NCBI GenBank assembly: GCA_002790675.1
Contig: PFVP01000032.1
Location: 1 to 32,698 of the forward strand
Origin: Candidatus Moranbacteria bacterium CG_4_9_14_3_um_filter_45_14
GTDB lineage: Bacteria > Patescibacteriota > Minisyncoccia > Moranbacterales > UBA1568
Length of the DNA stretch: 32,698 nt
Direction of reading: 5' to 3'
Both the position numbers and the translations under genes were made by a program. Each line of letters begins with the position of its first letter. Within the stretch, counting starts at the first letter, position 1. The notes under the pieces are model-generated. The model was given only the letters and a program-made list of their open reading frames with translations. It was not told where the DNA came from and searched no databases. This document shows positions 1 through 20,500 of this stretch, in pieces.

Positions 1-21
1 AAAAACTTCCTTTCGGAAGTT
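1..21 (-). terminator. putative intrinsic terminator downstream of tRNA-Tyr
   Basis: 7-bp stem aacttcc/ggaagtt (4-10 with 15-21) and loop tttc. On the minus strand the hairpin is followed by a U-run (plus-strand aaaaa at the window edge), so it is truncated by the window. Confidence 0.4.
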
Positions 22-31
22 ATTTCATTTG

Positions 32-311
32 TGGGCAGGGAGGGATTCGAACCCCCGAAGGCCGAAGCCGACAGATTTCATATAACCCAAAGATTTCTCC
101 TTGGCACGGACTATATCTTCACCTGTTCTAGGTGCTCTGGTATCTAGTCTCTACGGCGCTCTCCGACAAAATGTCAGAGTTCCCACGGTATTCGCATATT
201 CTCTTACGAGAACTTAGCCTCCACCGTTATCCCAGAAAGTTCATCCAAGAGTCCCCTCTTAGAGCTGCAAATTCTACAGTCTGTTGTAATAGACCACTCT
301 ACCACCTACCC
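32..311 (-). tRNA. tRNA-Tyr(GUA), type II (long variable arm), interrupted by an intron; exons 276..311 and 32..78
   Basis: The minus strand reads GGGTAGG-TG-GTAG-AGTGGTCTA-TTAC-A-ACAGA-CTGT | intron | AAA-TCTGT-CGGCTTCGGCCTTC-GGGGG-TTCGAAT-CCCTC-CCTGCCC-A. The 7-bp acceptor stem has one G-U pair. D, anticodon (ACAGA/TCTGT) and T stems all pair, the T-loop is the canonical TTCGAAT, and the joined anticodon loop is CUGUAAA. The mature length is 83 nt. CCA is not encoded. Confidence 0.9.
79..275 (-). ncRNA. group I self-splicing intron (small tRNA anticodon-loop type, IC3-like), 197 nt
   Basis: The 5' exon ends in U and forms a U.G pair in P1 (exon CUGU 279-276 with intron GCAG 268-265). The intron ends in G (position 79). 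The core contains GUAGAGACUAGA and GAAGAUAUAGUCC. P7 is GACUA (149-145) paired with UAGUC (113-109), and the J8/7-like AAGAUA matches the catalytic-core consensus as I recall it from the Tetrahymena and Azoarcus ribozymes. Other hairpins are P8 (120-134), P5 capped by a GUAA tetraloop (199-212), P6 (161-179) and P9 (87-104). There is no internal ORF. Confidence 0.88.
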
Positions 312-367
312 ATATTTACAAGGTGCTCCTCCAGCATCCTATCAAACCCATCTCTTTTATTCAACTG

Positions 368-440
368 AGCCACCTGTCAGACTCGAACTGACGACCCACG
401 CATTACAAGTGCGTTGCTCTACCAACTGAGCTAAGATGGC
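368..440 (-). tRNA. tRNA-Thr(UGU)
   Basis: The minus strand reads GCCATCT-TA-GCTC-AGTTGGTA-GAGC-A-ACGCA-CTTGTAA-TGCGT-GGGTC-GTCAG-TTCGAGT-CTGAC-AGGTGGC-T. This is 73 nt, all four stems pair, and the anticodon is TGT. CCA is not encoded. It lies 56 nt upstream of tRNA-Tyr on the same strand; as I recall, E. coli thrU-tyrU have the same order. Confidence 0.93.
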
Positions 441-11852: not shown

Positions 11853-14351
11853 ATGTTGGATAAAAAACGCCAAGAAAAAATCAAAGGGCTTGTCGAATTG
11901 GAAAAAGTCATAACAGAAATTCTTGTGGCGAATGGACGTACTGTAGAGCCATTCATCAAGGTCTTCAATTACAGTGATGAAAATATCACCAAAAGTCCGC
12001 TCGGGTCTCTGATCGGTGTTTTTGAAATTGCAGAGCAGAGCGAAGATTCAGCTTATATCGTCAACTTCCTGGCATCCGTTGCGAAAAAAGAATACTTCAG
12101 CAACGGACGCCGTGGTGCTATCGAAAGTTTCGAAGCGGCTCTGCATAAAATCAACCTCGCCCTTGCGGAACTTGTCAGGCACGGCAATATCGCATGGCTG
12201 GGTAACTTCCACGGAGCACTCGGCGTGCTGGAGAAAAACAATCTCCATTTCTCTATCACCGGCAAATCGGAAATTCTTCTCTTGCGCGGTGAAAAAATCT
12301 CAGAAATCAGTGCTGGCCTGGCCTCCCCTGAATCCAACATCCACCCCATCAAAACATTCGTTGAGATTTCAAGCGGTCACCTGATGCTGGAAGATAAAAT
12401 CATTTTCACTTCACCAGAACTTCTCGACCTGCTCTCAATTGAAGACCTCAAAAAAAACGCTCTCCGTATGGATAAGGATCAATTCGCTCAATTCCTCCGG
12501 ACAGTCCTTGTGAATGAACTCAATATGGGAGGCTCTCTTATCGTCGATCTCAAAGAAAGTACTCCTCTGCCGGAGCCACGCAAGGAGACGAGGAAAGTTA
12601 CTACTGTCATCGAGAATATCTTCAGCAAAGAAGCTTTCGATTCACAGATCAAACCAAAGGAAAATACGGATCAACTGCCGGAGAAAGAGGAGAAATATTC
12701 GAACCCGAAGGAATATGTCGATTCCAAAACCGGACATATTTTCATCCAAGGAGAGACATCGGGAGAGGCGCCCGAACACCTTATTTTTGAACGAGCGAAA
12801 CTTTCAGCTCAGGACTTGCTCCATATCTTCAGCTCATTTTTTGCATCCCAGGGAAAACTCATCCGTAAAGGAAAAAAGTATGGTCTGCTCCTTTCTAATA
12901 CTCTGGCGGAAAAGAATGCCGTCATAACGCACAAAATGACACGCTTCCTCCGTAAGCAATGGCAGAAAGGAATGACTGCATCAACATCGGGGGTTTCTTC
13001 TTTGATCCTTTCTCTTCGCTCGGTGAAAATATCACAGAAGGCCAAAAAGAAAGTCCTCCCAGATACGATTACGACATCTTCATACGAAGAAACTCTGAAA
13101 TCCCGATTGACATTCACAGAGAAGAGAGCGGAAGATATTTCTTCTCTCGTAGAAGAGAAGAATGAAGATATACCGGATTTTATGAAAGAAAAGCTCGCTC
13201 GTTTCTATCGAGAGAATACCGCTGTCGTAACACAGATTGCCACCGAAACCTATTCTGCCAAGAAATTTCAGACGGAAAAATCCAACATATCCGTTCTTGT
13301 CCGAAAAATATTTCAAAGAATACCCTCTTCCTCTCATATGATTTGGAACAGTATCTCATCTCAAGCGAAAACCGTCATCAAGTCATTCTTTCCCTTCTTG
13401 AGAACGCTCTCTTCACGCTATCAAAAACGCACGTTCATCTTCAGCATCCTCTTTGTTGTTCTTTTCATCACAGGATCCGTTCTGTTGACACGCTCATTTT
13501 TGAAAAATACTCCTTCTCCACTGGCAGAAATATCCCAACCTCCGATTGAAACGTCCGTCTTTCCTCTTGAGACCGAAAAAAATGCCCACGTATTGGAAAC
13601 ATCCCCTCTTATCATCGCTACCGAACAAGATCCTCTCATCGCTTCCATACTTCTTGGCAATGAGACATACCTCATCACCACTACCTCTATTCAAAACACA
13701 AACGATAACAAACGCTATCCGTTACCATCTGGAGCTGGAGCGATACAGTTCGCCTCTCCGATGGATGATTTGCGTCTCATCTTCGTCTATACCAATACGA
13801 ACGAGCTCTTCTCATTCGCTCCTGTCAATCATACATTCACAAAAAATACCCTCACACTACCCGCAAACGCCCTCGTGGAAGATATAGGCACGTATCTCAC
13901 CTATCTCTATGTCCTCGATAGCGCTACTGATCAGATTTATCGCTTTCCACGGGCAGAAGGCGGATTTGGAGCAGGGTCAACTTGGTTCAGAAACACGATA
14001 GATATAGAAGACACGGCTCAAATGGCCATCAATGAAACTATCTTCATCGCTCCGAACAAGGCGACTGTCTCGGCATTCTTCCGTGGCCAGTTCGTAAAGA
14101 ATCTCGAATCTCCCGTTACACCGCTTTCTCTGACAAGCCTCTTCACTCACCCAGGACTCACAGATATCTACGCTCTCGATGCAGAGAATAAACGTGTCCT
14201 CATCTGGAACCAAGACAGTACTCTCTTGGCTCAATACTTCTCCGAACAATTCGCTTCCGCCGAAAGCATCACTGTGAACGAAAAAACGGGCGAATTTTTC
14301 CTGACAACTTCAAATACTCTTCTTTCTTTTAAAATCAATCTCGGGGAGTAA
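11853..14351 (+). CDS. 832-aa bitopic membrane protein: cytoplasmic N-domain (possibly a degenerate PP2C/SpoIIE-like fold), one TM, extracytoplasmic repeat (beta-propeller-like) domain
   Basis: A single strong TM helix (TFIFSILFVVLFITGSVLL) lies near residue 530. The C-terminal region carries recurring Y-x-L-D-x(4-5)-I-Y/W motifs (YLYVLDSATDQIYRF, DIYALDAENKRVLIWN). The N-domain assignment is a weak pattern impression only. Confidence 0.6.
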   Translation: MLDKKRQEKIKGLVELEKVITEILVANGRTVEPFIKVFNYSDENITKSPLGSLIGVFEIAEQSEDSAYIVNFLASVAKKEYFSNGRRGAIESFEAALHKINLALAELVRHGNIAWLGNFHGALGVLEKNNLHFSITGKSEILLLRGEKISEISAGLASPESNIHPIKTFVEISSGHLMLEDKIIFTSPELLDLLSIEDLKKNALRMDKDQFAQFLRTVLVNELNMGGSLIVDLKESTPLPEPRKETRKVTTVIENIFSKEAFDSQIKPKENTDQLPEKEEKYSNPKEYVDSKTGHIFIQGETSGEAPEHLIFERAKLSAQDLLHIFSSFFASQGKLIRKGKKYGLLLSNTLAEKNAVITHKMTRFLRKQWQKGMTASTSGVSSLILSLRSVKISQKAKKKVLPDTITTSSYEETLKSRLTFTEKRAEDISSLVEEKNEDIPDFMKEKLARFYRENTAVVTQIATETYSAKKFQTEKSNISVLVRKIFQRIPSSSHMIWNSISSQAKTVIKSFFPFLRTLSSRYQKRTFIFSILFVVLFITGSVLLTRSFLKNTPSPLAEISQPPIETSVFPLETEKNAHVLETSPLIIATEQDPLIASILLGNETYLITTTSIQNTNDNKRYPLPSGAGAIQFASPMDDLRLIFVYTNTNELFSFAPVNHTFTKNTLTLPANALVEDIGTYLTYLYVLDSATDQIYRFPRAEGGFGAGSTWFRNTIDIEDTAQMAINETIFIAPNKATVSAFFRGQFVKNLESPVTPLSLTSLFTHPGLTDIYALDAENKRVLIWNQDSTLLAQYFSEQFASAESITVNEKTGEFFLTTSNTLLSFKINLGE

Positions 14352-14436: not shown

Positions 14437-16929
14437 CTATACAGGCTTCTCGGCCAATTTCATCCGGCTCATAATTTCACGATTGACGATTGAGGCATCA
14501 CGACCATAACGGAGGCGTGAGAGCTCTTTGAATGCATTGGCTACTTCCTGATTACCATGTGTCGGTGGGTACGTCTTCATATTGAACGGCTTGGTAAGCT
14601 CATTGTTCATCAGGAGTCTCGCGAAACAATTGCGGTTATCCGCGTTTATCAGATCGCGTGCGGTAAACACTGGCAAAAACTGTTTTTCCAAAAATTCAGC
14701 ATCCTCAGAACCGACACGGAAAGACACCAATGATCCGACGTTACCGAATACCGCCTTGGCGATATCTTCTTTCAGTTGGGCGATAAATTGATGTGCCATC
14801 GTGAGTACCAACCGATACTTTCGGGCTTCTGAGAGAATCTGCGCGATAGAATTCGTTGTAACGTTTTGGAACTCATCCATATAGAGGTAGAAATCCGTCC
14901 GTTCATCTTCCGGCGTATCCACTCGAGAAAGAGCTGCCATCAGAATCTTCCCGACGATAACCATACCGAGTAATCGTGCGTTGATCTCACCGATCTTGCC
15001 TTTTGAAAGATTGACGAGAAGAATTTTCTTCCCATCCATAATGGCGCGGAAATCAAGCGTACTCTTCTGCTGAGCGATGATCGGACGCATCATATCGTTC
15101 GAGATGAACGTGGTAAGTTTGGAGGTAATATACGGCACCATATTGGCCAAAGCAGCTTCGCCACCGGCCTTCTCTGCTTCTTTCGTCCAAAAATCATAGG
15201 CGATTGGGTTGTTGCATTTGGAAAGTTTATATTTTCGGAAATCTTCGTCTGCCAGTACTTTGGAAATCTCCATCAAAGTCGATCCACTCTCTGGGTCTTC
15301 CATAATGAGAAGCATCGCATTGCGCATATATTGCTCGAACATCGGACCTCCAGTCGCTTTCAAATCATAAAGTTGATCAAAAATACCGATCATTTCATTG
15401 ATGACGAATGTCTTCTGCTCTGGATGAGCCGGATCGTACTCGAGCATATTGAGCCCGATTGGCCGTTCGGTATCTGATGGATCAAACAAAATGACATCTT
15501 CTGCACGTTCTTTCGGAATAGACGCCAAAATATCTTCGATGGCATCACCGTGCGGATCGATGAAACAAAGACCCTTACCAGCCAATACGTCTTTCTTGGC
15601 CATTTCTTGTAAATAAACAGATTTACCGACACCAGTCTGACCGATGACGTACATATGACGACGACGATCATTATCAGTGATACGGATATCCGTCTTTATA
15701 CCACGATAATCGTTGAAGCCAAGCAGAAGACCATCCTGTGGAATGTTGACTGGTGGTGGAGCTGTTCCGGATTTCAGCCACTTGATTTTCGGCGTAGCAG
15801 TAGTAGAAATCGGAAAATGGAAAATACTCGCCAGCTCTTCCACCGTAAGAATCATCTGCGTTTCATCATCGAAATTACGGAAGATGAAATCATACACGGA
15901 TCGTTTCTCACTGATGCGTTTTTTGATACGAAAGCTGTTCACTTCCGGATTTTCAAACTGCCCGAAAGCATTTTCCATATGACCCAAAATTTCTTCCGCC
16001 CGTTCCTGTGTCGCTCCCGATGCAATCAAACGTATATTGCTACGGAAAGCTCCTTTGTTGGTTTTTTCATCAATGGATTTCACAAGTTCCTGCTCCTCGG
16101 GAGTCAAACTTACTTGCTTCTTCTCCTCCTTGATACGCTCTCTATGCTTTGGGTTCTTCAAAATATCAAGTATCTCTCTCCCTACGGTAGAGGAAGTTTC
16201 ATAAAAAATCGAATTGCTTCTCGCGTCTTTCAGACGCTTTCCTTCCTGCATTTTCTGAGCGATTTTCTTCCCATCCTTACGCCAACTCATATTTGTCCGA
16301 GCAAGCAAAATTTGGATAGCTGCTCCTTCTTCAATAGTATTTAATTTACTCAAAGCATTCGATATCTCGTTCAATGGATCAACATCTACTGTACGATATG
16401 TACGCAGTGGCAGGGAATGCCCATGCGTCAATTCCAACACCGATACAGCCGTATGGCTCTCTGGAGAGAAAATGGTGTAATCAGAGACTTTCTCGATCAC
16501 TGCATGAGGGAAAAAACTGTGTACCTGTTTTTCCGCATTTTCACGGAAACGCTTCGGCACGGAAAGATAGAAGAATATCTCTTCACTCGAAGATGGATTG
16601 GCGATTTCGAAAACGATGGTAGGCATATCAAAAAAAAGACTCTTCAAAAAACCACCTTTCGATTTGAGGGTCGTGAGAGATGAGAGCAATTGTTCCATTG
16701 CTAATATTTCTTCTTTCCACGCTTCCGCACTCGATTGTTGTTGTCTTCCTTCGGGAATGTCTTTCTGTGTCACACGAATCATTTCTAGATCCATATTCAC
16801 AGACTGATTGACCTGATAGCGGAAACGGAGAAAACTCCGTACAACAAGGTATATCCCACTCACGACCGATACCGATGCGAATATCCAGATGAGTGATACG
16901 AAAATGGTATTGAAATCAAAGCCTGTCAT
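14437..16929 (-). CDS. membrane-anchored P-loop NTPase of the FtsK/HerA-VirB4/VirD4 (T4SS coupling-protein-like, AAA_10/DUF87 + TraG-D_C-type) group
   Basis: N-terminal TM helix (IFVSLIWIFASVSVVSGIYLVV) followed by a ~400-aa domain of unknown function. Walker A is VIGQTGVGKSVYL, then CFIDPHGD. Walker B is FYLYMDEFQN. The ARKYRLVLTMAHQFIAQL motif is typical of the TraG/TraD C-terminal region. Confidence 0.75.
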   Translation of the reverse strand: MTGFDFNTIFVSLIWIFASVSVVSGIYLVVRSFLRFRYQVNQSVNMDLEMIRVTQKDIPEGRQQQSSAEAWKEEILAMEQLLSSLTTLKSKGGFLKSLFFDMPTIVFEIANPSSSEEIFFYLSVPKRFRENAEKQVHSFFPHAVIEKVSDYTIFSPESHTAVSVLELTHGHSLPLRTYRTVDVDPLNEISNALSKLNTIEEGAAIQILLARTNMSWRKDGKKIAQKMQEGKRLKDARSNSIFYETSSTVGREILDILKNPKHRERIKEEKKQVSLTPEEQELVKSIDEKTNKGAFRSNIRLIASGATQERAEEILGHMENAFGQFENPEVNSFRIKKRISEKRSVYDFIFRNFDDETQMILTVEELASIFHFPISTTATPKIKWLKSGTAPPPVNIPQDGLLLGFNDYRGIKTDIRITDNDRRRHMYVIGQTGVGKSVYLQEMAKKDVLAGKGLCFIDPHGDAIEDILASIPKERAEDVILFDPSDTERPIGLNMLEYDPAHPEQKTFVINEMIGIFDQLYDLKATGGPMFEQYMRNAMLLIMEDPESGSTLMEISKVLADEDFRKYKLSKCNNPIAYDFWTKEAEKAGGEAALANMVPYITSKLTTFISNDMMRPIIAQQKSTLDFRAIMDGKKILLVNLSKGKIGEINARLLGMVIVGKILMAALSRVDTPEDERTDFYLYMDEFQNVTTNSIAQILSEARKYRLVLTMAHQFIAQLKEDIAKAVFGNVGSLVSFRVGSEDAEFLEKQFLPVFTARDLINADNRNCFARLLMNNELTKPFNMKTYPPTHGNQEVANAFKELSRLRYGRDASIVNREIMSRMKLAEKPV

Positions 16930-17740: not shown

Positions 17741-20500
17741 TTATGGTTTAAAGAATCCTTTTATCTCTTTGCCTGTACGAAGAGCAACGGTGGTCATCCT
17801 TCTCGTATAATGGTCGATATTCTCACCGGCTTCTACCTGAGAGAACTTCACCCCGAAAGCTTTCTCGGAAGCTTCGGTGAATCTCACCAGTTCTTTCATC
17901 TGATCATAGTGAAGCGGGTTCTGTATTCTATCATATCTATATCCCAATTTCTCATTTTCAAAACCGTTCACATCTTTCAATACATCTGACATCTTCGTGG
18001 CGCCGAGTTTCTGCCCATTCATAGTATAATCATACTCTATCGGTACACTGGCCTCTCCGGGATTCATCATAAAGATATTCATTCGGATCCGCCCCAACGT
18101 CGTATTGAAACGGCCAAAATCTTCCGGATGTTCTGTAAGATAAGCTTTCGGATCAGTAAAAGCAATGTTCTCTTGTACCAATACATTTCTCGTTTCCTGA
18201 ATAGCAATATCTGGATTTGATCCATCTATCCCTCCTGCTAAAAGGGTATTCCCATCAGTCATTTTGATCACATCTGATTGATGAGGAGAACCACTACCTA
18301 AAATTTCATCCACTCTTGCATTAGTGAGCATCGTTTTAGGATGATTCGTAACATATTCCGCTATTTTTGCATCATTGGAAACAATCGAGGAAAGCTGATC
18401 GGAAGAAAGTGCTTTCGTCTGAGCGAGCACATCTGCAATAAATTTTTCATCAATGCCGTGTGATGAGAAATTGATTGTTTCTCCTGCCTTAAGTTGTACA
18501 TCACCATACTGATCCTTCAACGCATCAATAAAGTGCGTTTTCTCTGGTTCGTCGAGTTTCATCGTATCCGCTAACCTCCCCGCTATTTTCCAGACAGAAT
18601 CACCTTTCTGGACAACATAATCCTTATCGAACATACCGCTTATCATATCCGGTTTCACCACTGGTTGAGCCTCAGCGGGTATGATAGGTTTCGCTGAAAT
18701 ATTCGCAGGTAGGACTTCAGATCCGTAAAAAGCATTTACAATATGGTTCTTTGTCCAATCAACCGCTTCATTTCCGCCCAAATGATCCATCGCCACCTGT
18801 GTCAACCATCCGGATCCGACAAGACCCCCGACTCCTACAGCCCCCAACTTTCGCCACGTCTTGACTCTTTTTTCATTCTGTAATTTCCCATTGAGTGAAG
18901 CAATATCTTTTTTGAGGAATGCATTCAAAACATCGATATTTACTTCCGGTTTTGCACTCAGGTTTTCTTTTCCAAATATCTTGAGTTGTTCTTGTATTTC
19001 TTCTTCTGATTGAGTTGTTTTACTTCTTTCTCCGAAACTTTCCAAGAGTGCTTCAACACCAACTGCTGTTCCCGCACCGCTGGCAATTTTTCGTATCACG
19101 GAAACGAAAGCCATCGCTCCTAAAGCTGTTCCGCCCCCACCTGATAACACCGTTGCTGTCGTAATGCCCAAAAAAGCGGCTGTTATCGCTAATTTTCCTT
19201 TCAGAGGAATGCGATTATATGCACGCCCCATATTGCCGAAAAGAACCGTCATTTTCTCGAAAGCACTTGCGTCCGAGAAATGCTCTGATTTATATCGAAC
19301 GCGTTCATCTATAAGATTTTTTGATTCATCAATCTTATAATACCTCAATAATTGTTCTGCTCTTCTTGATTGTTGTTCTCGAGTGAGAGATGCATCATTT
19401 TGCAATGTTTCTATTTCAGCCTCCCTGAGATTCTGCAGCGCGTTTTCATAAAGTACTTGATTTTCACCTTTCTTTTTATCCTTCTCAATACCGAACATAC
19501 TTCTAATTTTTTTCCAAGCAGTTGTCGTTTCAGCATCTTCTTTGACCCATGCAGCACGGAATTCTCTCACGAAAATACGAAGGTCGTCGATATTTCGCTG
19601 TCCCCCCTCTCGATCTGATAAAACAGACTCTCCCTCCTGTTGTTCAGAAGTTTTCTCATCGATCATTTCTCTTTCTTTTACAACGTCATCCGGTCTTTCA
19701 CTTGCCTCTTCCAGAGGAGGATGGAGTTCCAAGTATTGCTTGGCAAAAACTTTTCCTGAAACATAGTCTTCTTCGGTATCAGTATCATCAGTATGATCAC
19801 CCAAAGAAGGAGTTTCTGTATCTTGTTTCGCTGGAATTTTTTCCGATATGGATCCAACGCCGATGTCTACCAATTTCCATCCATTCTGATGTCTTTTCCA
19901 AGCGGATTCTGTTTTCACAATACTATTGTTTTTACCAACCAAATCATCGCCACTACGCCTATAATACGCTTTGTGCCCATTTTCACTCATCAAAATCAAG
20001 AGTTCCCCGTCAGGAACGCTCTCTACGAATGTTTTTACCCGAAAATCTTCCAATTCCTCTTCTCTCGGTATTTCTTCCTGTTTTGACTCAGCAACTCTAA
20101 CAAAATCGGTACTTTGTTCCATACTGGCAGGAACAACCGCTTTCGCTCGCTCATCTTCTTCCTGTTGCTGTGTTTTCAATGTATTCTTATTGTTATTTCT
20201 TTTTGGGTTGAATGGGCTTCTTATATATCTGTCATCGACATCTTTGCCAGCCGGAAAATTCTGAGTGACATTTGCTGTCACCTCAACCTTGACTGCTGGC
20301 ATCGCGAACTTCGCAGGTTGTGTTCTTATAGAAACATCTGCATTCTGTGCGGGCTCTGATTGCTGTTTCGGTTCTTCCCGAGGTACATCGAGACCAAGCT
20401 TTGCTCTGACACGTTTTATCATAGGCGCTACCAACTCCTGAGCGAATTTTTCTCCCTCTGCTCTAGGTAAATACGGTAATAATTTTCTGGGCTCACTCAT
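17741..20500 (-). CDS. 919-aa membrane protein with LysM peptidoglycan-binding domain
   Basis: The N-terminal ~440 aa are charged. Gly/Ala-rich TM segments follow (LAITAAFLGITTATVLSGGGG..., LGAVGVGGLVGSGWLTQVA). A LysM-like segment is present (YVVQKGDSVWKIAGRLADTMKLDE...LKAGETINF), then a ~250-aa C-terminal domain of unknown function. The start overlaps the upstream stop (ATGA). Confidence 0.7.
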   Translation of the reverse strand: MSEPRKLLPYLPRAEGEKFAQELVAPMIKRVRAKLGLDVPREEPKQQSEPAQNADVSIRTQPAKFAMPAVKVEVTANVTQNFPAGKDVDDRYIRSPFNPKRNNNKNTLKTQQQEEDERAKAVVPASMEQSTDFVRVAESKQEEIPREEELEDFRVKTFVESVPDGELLILMSENGHKAYYRRSGDDLVGKNNSIVKTESAWKRHQNGWKLVDIGVGSISEKIPAKQDTETPSLGDHTDDTDTEEDYVSGKVFAKQYLELHPPLEEASERPDDVVKEREMIDEKTSEQQEGESVLSDREGGQRNIDDLRIFVREFRAAWVKEDAETTTAWKKIRSMFGIEKDKKKGENQVLYENALQNLREAEIETLQNDASLTREQQSRRAEQLLRYYKIDESKNLIDERVRYKSEHFSDASAFEKMTVLFGNMGRAYNRIPLKGKLAITAAFLGITTATVLSGGGGTALGAMAFVSVIRKIASGAGTAVGVEALLESFGERSKTTQSEEEIQEQLKIFGKENLSAKPEVNIDVLNAFLKKDIASLNGKLQNEKRVKTWRKLGAVGVGGLVGSGWLTQVAMDHLGGNEAVDWTKNHIVNAFYGSEVLPANISAKPIIPAEAQPVVKPDMISGMFDKDYVVQKGDSVWKIAGRLADTMKLDEPEKTHFIDALKDQYGDVQLKAGETINFSSHGIDEKFIADVLAQTKALSSDQLSSIVSNDAKIAEYVTNHPKTMLTNARVDEILGSGSPHQSDVIKMTDGNTLLAGGIDGSNPDIAIQETRNVLVQENIAFTDPKAYLTEHPEDFGRFNTTLGRIRMNIFMMNPGEASVPIEYDYTMNGQKLGATKMSDVLKDVNGFENEKLGYRYDRIQNPLHYDQMKELVRFTEASEKAFGVKFSQVEAGENIDHYTRRMTTVALRTGKEIKGFFKP

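Follow-up and report, generated by a model that had tools for sequence, protein, structure and literature searches.

A tRNA-Tyr(GUA) gene split in its anticodon loop

The stretch of DNA analyzed here (the window, 32,698 nucleotides (nt) of contig PFVP01000032.1 from a Moranbacteria bacterium) carries close to its first base a tRNA-Tyr(GUA) gene whose two halves are held apart by an insert. The exons and the insert all lie on the minus strand:

311..276, minus strand: tRNA-Tyr(GUA) 5' exon, tRNA positions 1-35; 36 nt, GGGUAGGUGGUAGAGUGGUCUAUUACAACAGACUGU, ending in GACUGU, with the 5' splice site after base 276 (U35).
275..79, minus strand: the insert, assigned below to the group I introns; 197 nt, AGAAUUUGCAG...GUUAUAUG, without protein-coding capacity.
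78..32, minus strand: tRNA-Tyr 3' exon, positions 36-73; 47 nt, AAAUCUGUCGGCUUCGGCCUUCGGGGGUUCGAAUCCCUCCCUGCCCA, starting with AAAUCUGU and ending with CCCUGCCCA, with A36 at 78 and the discriminator A at 32.

The insert is placed between anticodon U35 and A36 (the 35/36 site), directly 3' of a U in the anticodon loop. Joined, the exons give 83 nt that ARAGORN calls as tRNA-Tyr(gta) with a long variable arm; with an acceptor stem of 7 base pairs (bp; G1-C72) and discriminator A73, this is a bacterial type II tRNA-Tyr, and CCA is not encoded in the gene. In its intron mode, ARAGORN recovers the split gene from the raw DNA as tRNA-Tyr i(37,197), as expected from the first-pass annotation, which had placed the tRNA at 32-311, with a 197-nt insert and an 83-nt ligated product; exon joining and ARAGORN confirm all of these values. 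Run on the window in default mode, the same program finds a neighboring tRNA-Thr and misses the split tRNA-Tyr.

Protein-spliced tRNA introns, such as those of archaea and eukaryotes, are short, usually sit at 37/38, are flanked by a bulge-helix-bulge motif and are cut by a splicing endonuclease. An intron of that kind is ruled out here by the length of 197 nt, the 35/36 site and the group I core. We conclude that the insert is very probably a bona fide compact group I intron that lacks an open reading frame (ORF) and belongs to the tRNA anticodon-loop type (IC3-like), in the tRNA-Tyr(GUA) gene of a Moranbacteria-like bacterium of the Candidate Phyla Radiation (CPR, or Patescibacteria).

Structural elements of the intron

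The paired (P), joining (J) and loop (L) segments of a group I intron can be placed along the insert as follows, all on the minus strand. Fractions of 57 and compensatory changes refer to an alignment of homologous introns (alignment A1, described below).

P1: exon CUGU with guide GCAG, U35·G at the 5' splice site, extended by an A-U pair into the intron (CUGUA with UGCAG); read from the sequence, with the exon pairs CG/UA/GC/UG invariant in 57/57.
272..265: internal guide sequence AUUUGCAG, in which GCAG is the P1 partner of exon CUGU and AUUU can pair with 3' exon AAAU (P10).
244..263: P2, 8 bp, with the GNRA loop GGGA; compensatory changes at 8/8 pairs, L2 GNRA in about 54/57.
232..237: P3 5' strand UUCUGG, pairing with 140..135; compensatory changes at 4/6 pairs.
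222..227: P4 5' strand ACGGUG, after J3/4 GAUAA; near-invariant, with 99.4% of cells paired with 190..185.
194..218: P5/P5a, GC..GC with internal loop CUAAG/UAUG and tip UCUC-GUAA-GAGA; from sequence and fold, the distal part varying in length across the family.
185..190: P4 3' strand UACCGU, from alignment A1.
155..183: P6/P6a hairpin (GG..CC; CUCUGAC/GUCGGAG); compensatory changes at 6/7 P6a pairs.
154..145: J6/7 GUAGA and P7 5' strand GACUA (149..145); GTAGAGACTAG is invariant in 57/57 and was not demanded by the search pattern.
135..140: P3 3' strand CCAGAG, from alignment A1.
120..134: P8 hairpin CACCU-AGAAC-AGGUG; compensatory changes at 4/5 pairs.
109..119: J8/7 AAGAUA (119..114) and P7 3' strand UAGUC (113..109); the search pattern accounts for part of the invariance among homologues.
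87..104: P9, 7 bp, with a GAAA tetraloop; compensatory changes at 6/7 pairs, L9 GAAA in 54/57.
79..81: P9.0, 2 bp, its 3' strand 81..80 pairing with 107..106, and the terminal guanosine at 79; from sequence and alignment A1.

These segments supply the P3-P8 and P4-P6 domains, the P3/P7 pseudoknot and the J3/4, J6/7 and J8/7 junctions of a group I core, and the guide AUUUGCAG is complementary to the ligated anticodon loop CUGUAAAU. The minimum free energy (MFE) and centroid folds from ViennaRNA independently give P2, P4, P5, P6, P8 and P9, with an MFE of -60.3 kcal/mol and z = -2.85 versus shuffles. P1 (CUGU/GCAG with its U·G pair), the omega G at 79, P7 (GACUA/UAGUC) and J8/7 (AAGAUA) had all been named in the first reading of this DNA and are there in the sequence; the GNRA cap that it noted on P5 is the GUAA at the tip of P5a, and the P6, P8 and P9 hairpins are likewise present.

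Known bacterial tRNA introns fall into subgroup IC3 and are clamped by L2-P8 and L9-P5 contacts. The tRNA-Tyr intron has this IC3 architecture: it is compact, with a GNRA loop in L2, GAAA in L9 and a receptor-like motif in P5, it has no P5abc and no ORF, and its tertiary contacts are putative. The motif in question, the P5 internal loop CUAAG/UAUG, resembles the 11-nt GAAA-tetraloop receptor and is a putative one. No credible ORF is found in the intron, where the longest reading frames (33-78 amino acids) are artefacts running across the exons, nor does the intron hold the homing-endonuclease ORF of mobile group I introns.

In a search of bases 1-600, the Rfam model for group I introns, RF00028 (Intron_gpI), matches 286..87 on the minus strand, end to end over model positions 1-253, with 38.7 bits and E = 2.3e-8.

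Homologous introns and covariation

We scanned one genome per GTDB species with a pattern consisting of J8/7-P7', a gap, G followed across the splice site by AAAUC, a second gap and the T-loop, which returned 93 loci. At each of them the candidate exons were joined explicitly and ARAGORN was then asked for a tRNA. This identified 56 complete loci as tRNA-Tyr(GUA) genes split at the same site by an insert of 184-240 nt; two further loci (L132 and L156) are alike but cut by the locus edge, bringing the family to at least 58 species-representative genomes. Left to its intron mode, ARAGORN has no model of group I boundaries and therefore gives many of these homologues a wrong label (tRNA-Ser, Asp, His or Phe); explicit exon joining put the labels right. 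Nearly all of the intron-bearing genomes are labeled as metagenome-assembled genomes (MAGs) of CPR/Patescibacteria, including Moran-, Magasanik-, Doudna-, Yanofsky-, Lipton-, Lloyd-, Peregrini-/Peri-, Gracili- and Saccharibacteria.

Some records carry other names: the introns of L129, L131, L072 and other 'TPA_asm uncultured Gammaproteobacteria/Bdellovibrionales' entries nest among the CPR introns. Since the gene order at L129 ('Bdellovibrionales') is common to Moranbacteria and the window, the Proteobacteria/Bdellovibrionales labels are doubtful and probably wrong.

To alignment A1, which holds 57 sequences aligned with MAFFT, we applied a manual P1-P9 model. In this model 94.5% of cells form standard pairs, compared to 34-45% after a shift of the 3' partners by 1-3 columns. 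Compensatory changes, in which both sides differ, occur at 34/56 model pairs, and 0/500 shuffles reach any of the observed measures. The covarying helices are P2, P3, P6a, P8, P9 and the second P9.0 pair (182:207; CG 28, UA 18, UG 7, AU 3); the first intron pair of P1 covaries as well (AU 25, CG 17, GU 10, GC 4).

Six relatives were also scored against RF00028. With 80.3, 68.2 and 50.0 bits, three of them reach or exceed the curated gathering score, and the other three fall below it (42.5, 40.8 and 40.0 bits); the first three tie the intron family to the curated model although the window copy itself falls short.

The two highest scores seen, 80.3 and 68.2 bits, belong to clear outliers, L089:2011-2274 and L120:3892-4155. 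Their 240-nt introns occupy the same tRNA-Tyr 35/36 site and form a divergent sub-lineage: the P3/P4/P6 core differs (e.g., GGGTGAATTCGGGG..., GAGCCAAGC), and about 23 nt are additionally inserted between P7 and P3'. They may represent a second, independent colonization of the site.

An intron-less allele in a conserved tRNA slot

Two further features frame the tRNA-Tyr gene:

440..367, minus strand: tRNA-Thr(UGU), found by ARAGORN in default mode and by Rfam at the gathering threshold, 55 nt upstream of tRNA-Tyr.
1..21, minus strand: intrinsic-terminator-like hairpin AACUUCC-GAAA-GGAAGUU with a U run behind it that extends past the window edge; read from the sequence.

The tRNA-Thr gene is probably co-transcribed with tRNA-Tyr, and the terminator-like site stands directly after the tRNA-Tyr gene. 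Another assembly, L292, reaches beyond the window edge and has the same hairpin followed by UUUUUUAUUUU (full tail, TTTTTTATTTT). The slot is conserved: tRNA-Thr(UGU) is present in 44/58 homologous loci (45/59 sequences with the window counted), and the genes flanking the window's tRNAs match, and are collinear with, those of Moranbacteria MAGs. The closest intron is that of L075 (Moraniibacteriota), at 91%.

Metagenome contigs were scanned for the predicted ligated junction, ACAACAGACTGT joined to AAATCTGTCG, which revealed at least 120 intron-less tRNA-Tyr genes. One of these, at L215, matches the window's ligated exons at 82/83 positions and scores 60.7 bits against RF00005. It adjoins tRNA-Thr(UGU) directly, in the same slot as in the window (L215:5515-5695), and the genes around it follow the order of those in the window, at about 67-77% nucleotide identity. 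The agreement of this allele with the joined exons fixes the exon boundaries, the splice junction and the 3' terminal G as predicted; the ligated product thus exists as a gene in a relative, which lends indirect support to the proposed splicing with exon ligation. The intron-bearing Moranbacteria loci L101, L129 and L074 lie at a distance from the window similar to that of L215, and the presence or absence of the intron among related genomes in the same slot points to its precise loss or gain. This presence/absence polymorphism between L215 and the window occurs without any homing endonuclease.

The same organism is found in many aquifer assemblies. Two independent assemblies, L291 and L292, contain the whole 1110-nt tRNA region, intron included, with 100% identity to the window. 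At L283-L290, 8/10 contigs that carry the neighboring 245-amino-acid gene end 80-700 nt downstream of that gene, before or inside the tRNA region, which suggests strain variation or assembly difficulty at the site.

We built a neighbor-joining tree on the conserved intron columns; it is rough, and half of its labels are uninformative. All Moranbacteria-labeled introns form one clade together with the window, most Magasanikbacteria introns group together, and so do those of Peregrini-, Peri- and Gracilibacteria. As far as such a tree can tell, the pattern fits descent that would be mainly vertical, with occasional loss. What the RF00028 match, the covariation, the L215 allele and the collinear Moranbacteria flanks bear out is the central claim of the first-pass annotation, a group I intron that splits a type II tRNA-Tyr(GUA) at 35/36 in a CPR-like genome, and this intron is real, conserved and probably a functional ribozyme.

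Relation to known introns

The classic hosts of bacterial tRNA group I introns are tRNA-Leu(UAA), -fMet, -Ile(CAU) and -Arg(CCU), with insertion sites at 34/35 and 36/37. Tyrosine is thus a fifth host tRNA and 35/36 a third anticodon-loop position for such introns, and the combination is common in CPR. A tRNA-Tyr host had at first seemed unusual; this stands for the site, which lies outside the classic list, but not for its frequency within CPR, with its 58 or more species representatives. The accompanying statement that the intron is among the smallest of group I holds at 197 nt, with relatives down to 184 nt.

The closest known counterpart is the intron in pre-tRNA-Ile(CAU) of Azoarcus sp. 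BH72 (IC3, about 205 nt), which like the tRNA-Tyr intron is compact, ORF-less, inserted in the anticodon loop and built from the P1-P9 helix set. The two have in common the L2 GNRA loop, the L9 GAAA loop and the CUAAG/UAUG receptor-like motif in P5. When the profile of the Tyr family is aligned to the Azoarcus intron, the stretch from P4 to P7' presumably corresponds, with identical GUAGAGACUAGA and GGUGAAG.(A/C)AUAGUCC, a lead rather than a test. In contrast, the Azoarcus intron lies in a tRNA-Ile after U36 (36/37) in Betaproteobacteria, whereas the intron described here follows U35 (35/36) in CPR, is 197 nt long (184-240 nt in the family) and is far more A+T-rich, with 46% G+C.

The tRNA-Leu(UAA) intron of cyanobacteria and plastids (e.g., Anabaena) also occupies the anticodon loop of a type II tRNA, pairs the last U of its 5' exon to G in P1, and has a wide, mostly vertical distribution in one large clade with sporadic loss. 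It differs in its position between U34 and A35, its length of about 250 nt and its guide sequence. The introns of tRNA-fMet in cyanobacteria and tRNA-Arg(CCU) in Agrobacterium are ribozymes of the same bacterial anticodon-loop class, but they are inserted after position 36, and some fMet introns contain a homing-endonuclease ORF, unlike the tRNA-Tyr intron.

CPR bacteria are unusually rich in introns for bacteria, with group I introns in their 16S and 23S rRNA genes (PMC11270868, PMC11809585). These share the host clade with the tRNA-Tyr intron, but they interrupt rRNA, tend to be large and in many cases encode LAGLIDADG endonucleases, whereas the tRNA-Tyr intron lies in a tRNA and is minimal. 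The tRNAscan-SE 2.0 paper mentions just the fMet and Ile2 introns, to which it traces 'missing' tRNAs (PMC8450103), and Lui et al (2021) note briefly that group I introns occur in some tRNAs of CPR (PMC8172020). A further paper (PMC12641178) cites a 2025 preprint (Nakagawa et al) on group I introns in Patescibacteria tRNA genes, whose title announces a novel insertion site. Within the readable literature, of which this preprint was not part, we found no description of a bacterial tRNA-Tyr group I intron. The preprint may already cover the tRNA-Tyr 35/36 site, in which case the finding would already be known. We regard the novelty as moderate: the class, the IC3-like anticodon-loop introns, is known, and what is new is the host tRNA and the site of insertion.

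Proposed splicing pathway

We infer that the intron is transcribed and that it splices itself without a protein cofactor; its splicing may also be essential, as the first reading proposed for the case that this is the genome's only tRNA-Tyr gene. In the pathway we propose, the best-supported reading, transcription of the tRNA-Thr/tRNA-Tyr unit would run to the terminator at the edge of the window. The guide AUUUGCAG of the precursor would pair with exon C32-U35 to form P1 with the U35·G wobble, while the P3-P8/P7 core, braced by the putative tertiary contacts of L2 (GNRA) and L9 (GAAA), would bind free guanosine or GTP. The exogenous G would then attack after U35, the first of the two steps that are standard for group I introns. 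The terminal G (base 79), held in place by P9.0, would next replace the exogenous G in the P7 G site, and the 3'-OH of U35 would attack after base 79, joining U35 to A36. This would restore the GUA anticodon, leaving an 83-nt tRNA to be end-processed, given CCA and charged.

Weighing the alternatives

Several observations weigh against a group I intron that splices itself. The window's RF00028 score of 38.7 bits is below the curated gathering score of 50 bits, and the intron is absent from the Rfam output for the whole window, at the gathering threshold and at E-value thresholds alike; the model thus backs the first reading with its full-length match on bases 1-600 but not with a call at the gathering score. 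P10 is only 4 bp in the window and weak in most relatives. The intron's G+C content is only 46%, so that it may require assistance to fold in vivo. In P7 and most of P4 no position varies, and covariation is neutral there, offering neither support nor contradiction. Finally, the search pattern forced GATATAGTC (part of J8/7-P7) and the G before AAATC, whose invariance is uninformative. The low Rfam score, the moderate G+C content and the weak P10, along with the very small size of the intron and its few peripheral elements, would also fit a group I intron that is not autocatalytic in vivo and that, like many organellar ones, relies on a protein cofactor or chaperone for folding and splicing. 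We consider this unlikely: all core elements are conserved, together with two tetraloop-type peripheral clamps (L2 GNRA, L9 GAAA), the similarly built Azoarcus and Anabaena tRNA introns self-splice, and CPR genomes are small, with no candidate maturase in or beside the intron.

It is very improbable that this tRNA gene is decaying or disabled and that its work falls to another, uninterrupted tRNA-Tyr elsewhere in the genome. The visible part of the genome amounts to only 32.7 kb, and metagenomes often contain tRNA-Tyr genes that have the same anticodon stem-loop but no intron. Yet purifying selection clearly acts on both exons and on the intron, and compensatory changes are seen over at least 58 species; the tRNA-Thr/tRNA-Tyr slot is conserved and has a terminator; neither the 32.7-kb window nor the 413 kb that flank the 58 homologous loci contain an intact tRNA-Tyr; and the relative L215 has its single intron-less copy in the same slot. 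An assembly artefact, or a chance likeness to a ribozyme core, is effectively refuted. The window does come from a metagenome assembly, and several contigs of the same organism break near the tRNAs, but the identical 1110 nt in two other independent assemblies, the homologues in 58 species genomes and covariation statistics far above the controls leave this explanation with next to nothing.

Implications of a tRNA-Tyr intron in CPR bacteria

Since ARAGORN in default mode and Rfam at the gathering threshold both miss a group I intron of this kind, many CPR genomes will appear to lack tRNA-Tyr. Such apparent absences affect completeness estimates and claims of a reduced translation machinery. 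The family (184-240 nt) includes ribozymes below the roughly 205 nt of the Azoarcus intron, and the 57 aligned natural variants are useful for work on minimal ribozymes. Intron-bearing and intron-less alleles in the same slot of related Moranbacteria also provide a clean system to study loss or gain without a homing endonuclease.

A more far-reaching idea is that the split gene is the sole tRNA-Tyr of a nucleotide-auxotrophic bacterium with a minimal genome, and that the ribozyme, by using free guanosine or GTP, has been kept from early in the CPR radiation onward because it ties the supply of tRNA-Tyr, and with it translation, to the pool of guanine nucleotides. If so, every tyrosine codon would depend on a ribozyme, and the intron would be a built-in metabolic checkpoint and not a passive passenger. 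We consider this distinctly improbable. In a weaker version, the intron may be an ancient, vertically inherited and essential ribozyme, from a family that may hold the smallest natural group I ribozymes (184 nt).

Rejected matches and neighboring genes

The strict pattern returned 35/93 loci that are not Tyr introns but a protein-coding gene, intact tRNA-Ser genes and tRNA fragments. About 11 alpha- and beta-proteobacterial and similar matches fall inside a G+C-rich protein-coding gene, and nine matches in Armatimonadota are intact tRNA-Ser(GGA) genes. Five loci in MAGs labeled Bacillota or 'Bacteroidetes' (L077, L097, L099, L108 and L127) were considered as tRNA-Ser(UGA) introns and rejected, with neither an RF00028 match nor a 5' half. 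At loci of the L077 type, a conserved 3' half of a type II tRNA (...GGAAATCGTGTG...GGTTCGAATCC) adjoins A+T-rich DNA; it looks like the remnant of an integration site at a tRNA gene. On viral contigs, a looser pattern (AGATATAGTCN{15,45}GAAATCTG) gave 65 matches, about the number expected by chance, none of them with a tRNA.

The rest of the window includes housekeeping genes for EF-Ts, S2, RF1 with PrmC, an MraY-like transferase and RmuC. An 830-amino-acid protein (14437-16929, minus strand) has weak matches to TraG, TrwB and type IV secretion system (T4SS) coupling proteins, and is assigned DUF8128 in precomputed data. Its region is flanked by ORFs of 832 amino acids (11853-14351, plus strand) and 919 amino acids (17741-20500, minus strand), both without any Pfam match. 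These three genes may form a CPR-type secretion or DNA-uptake cluster.

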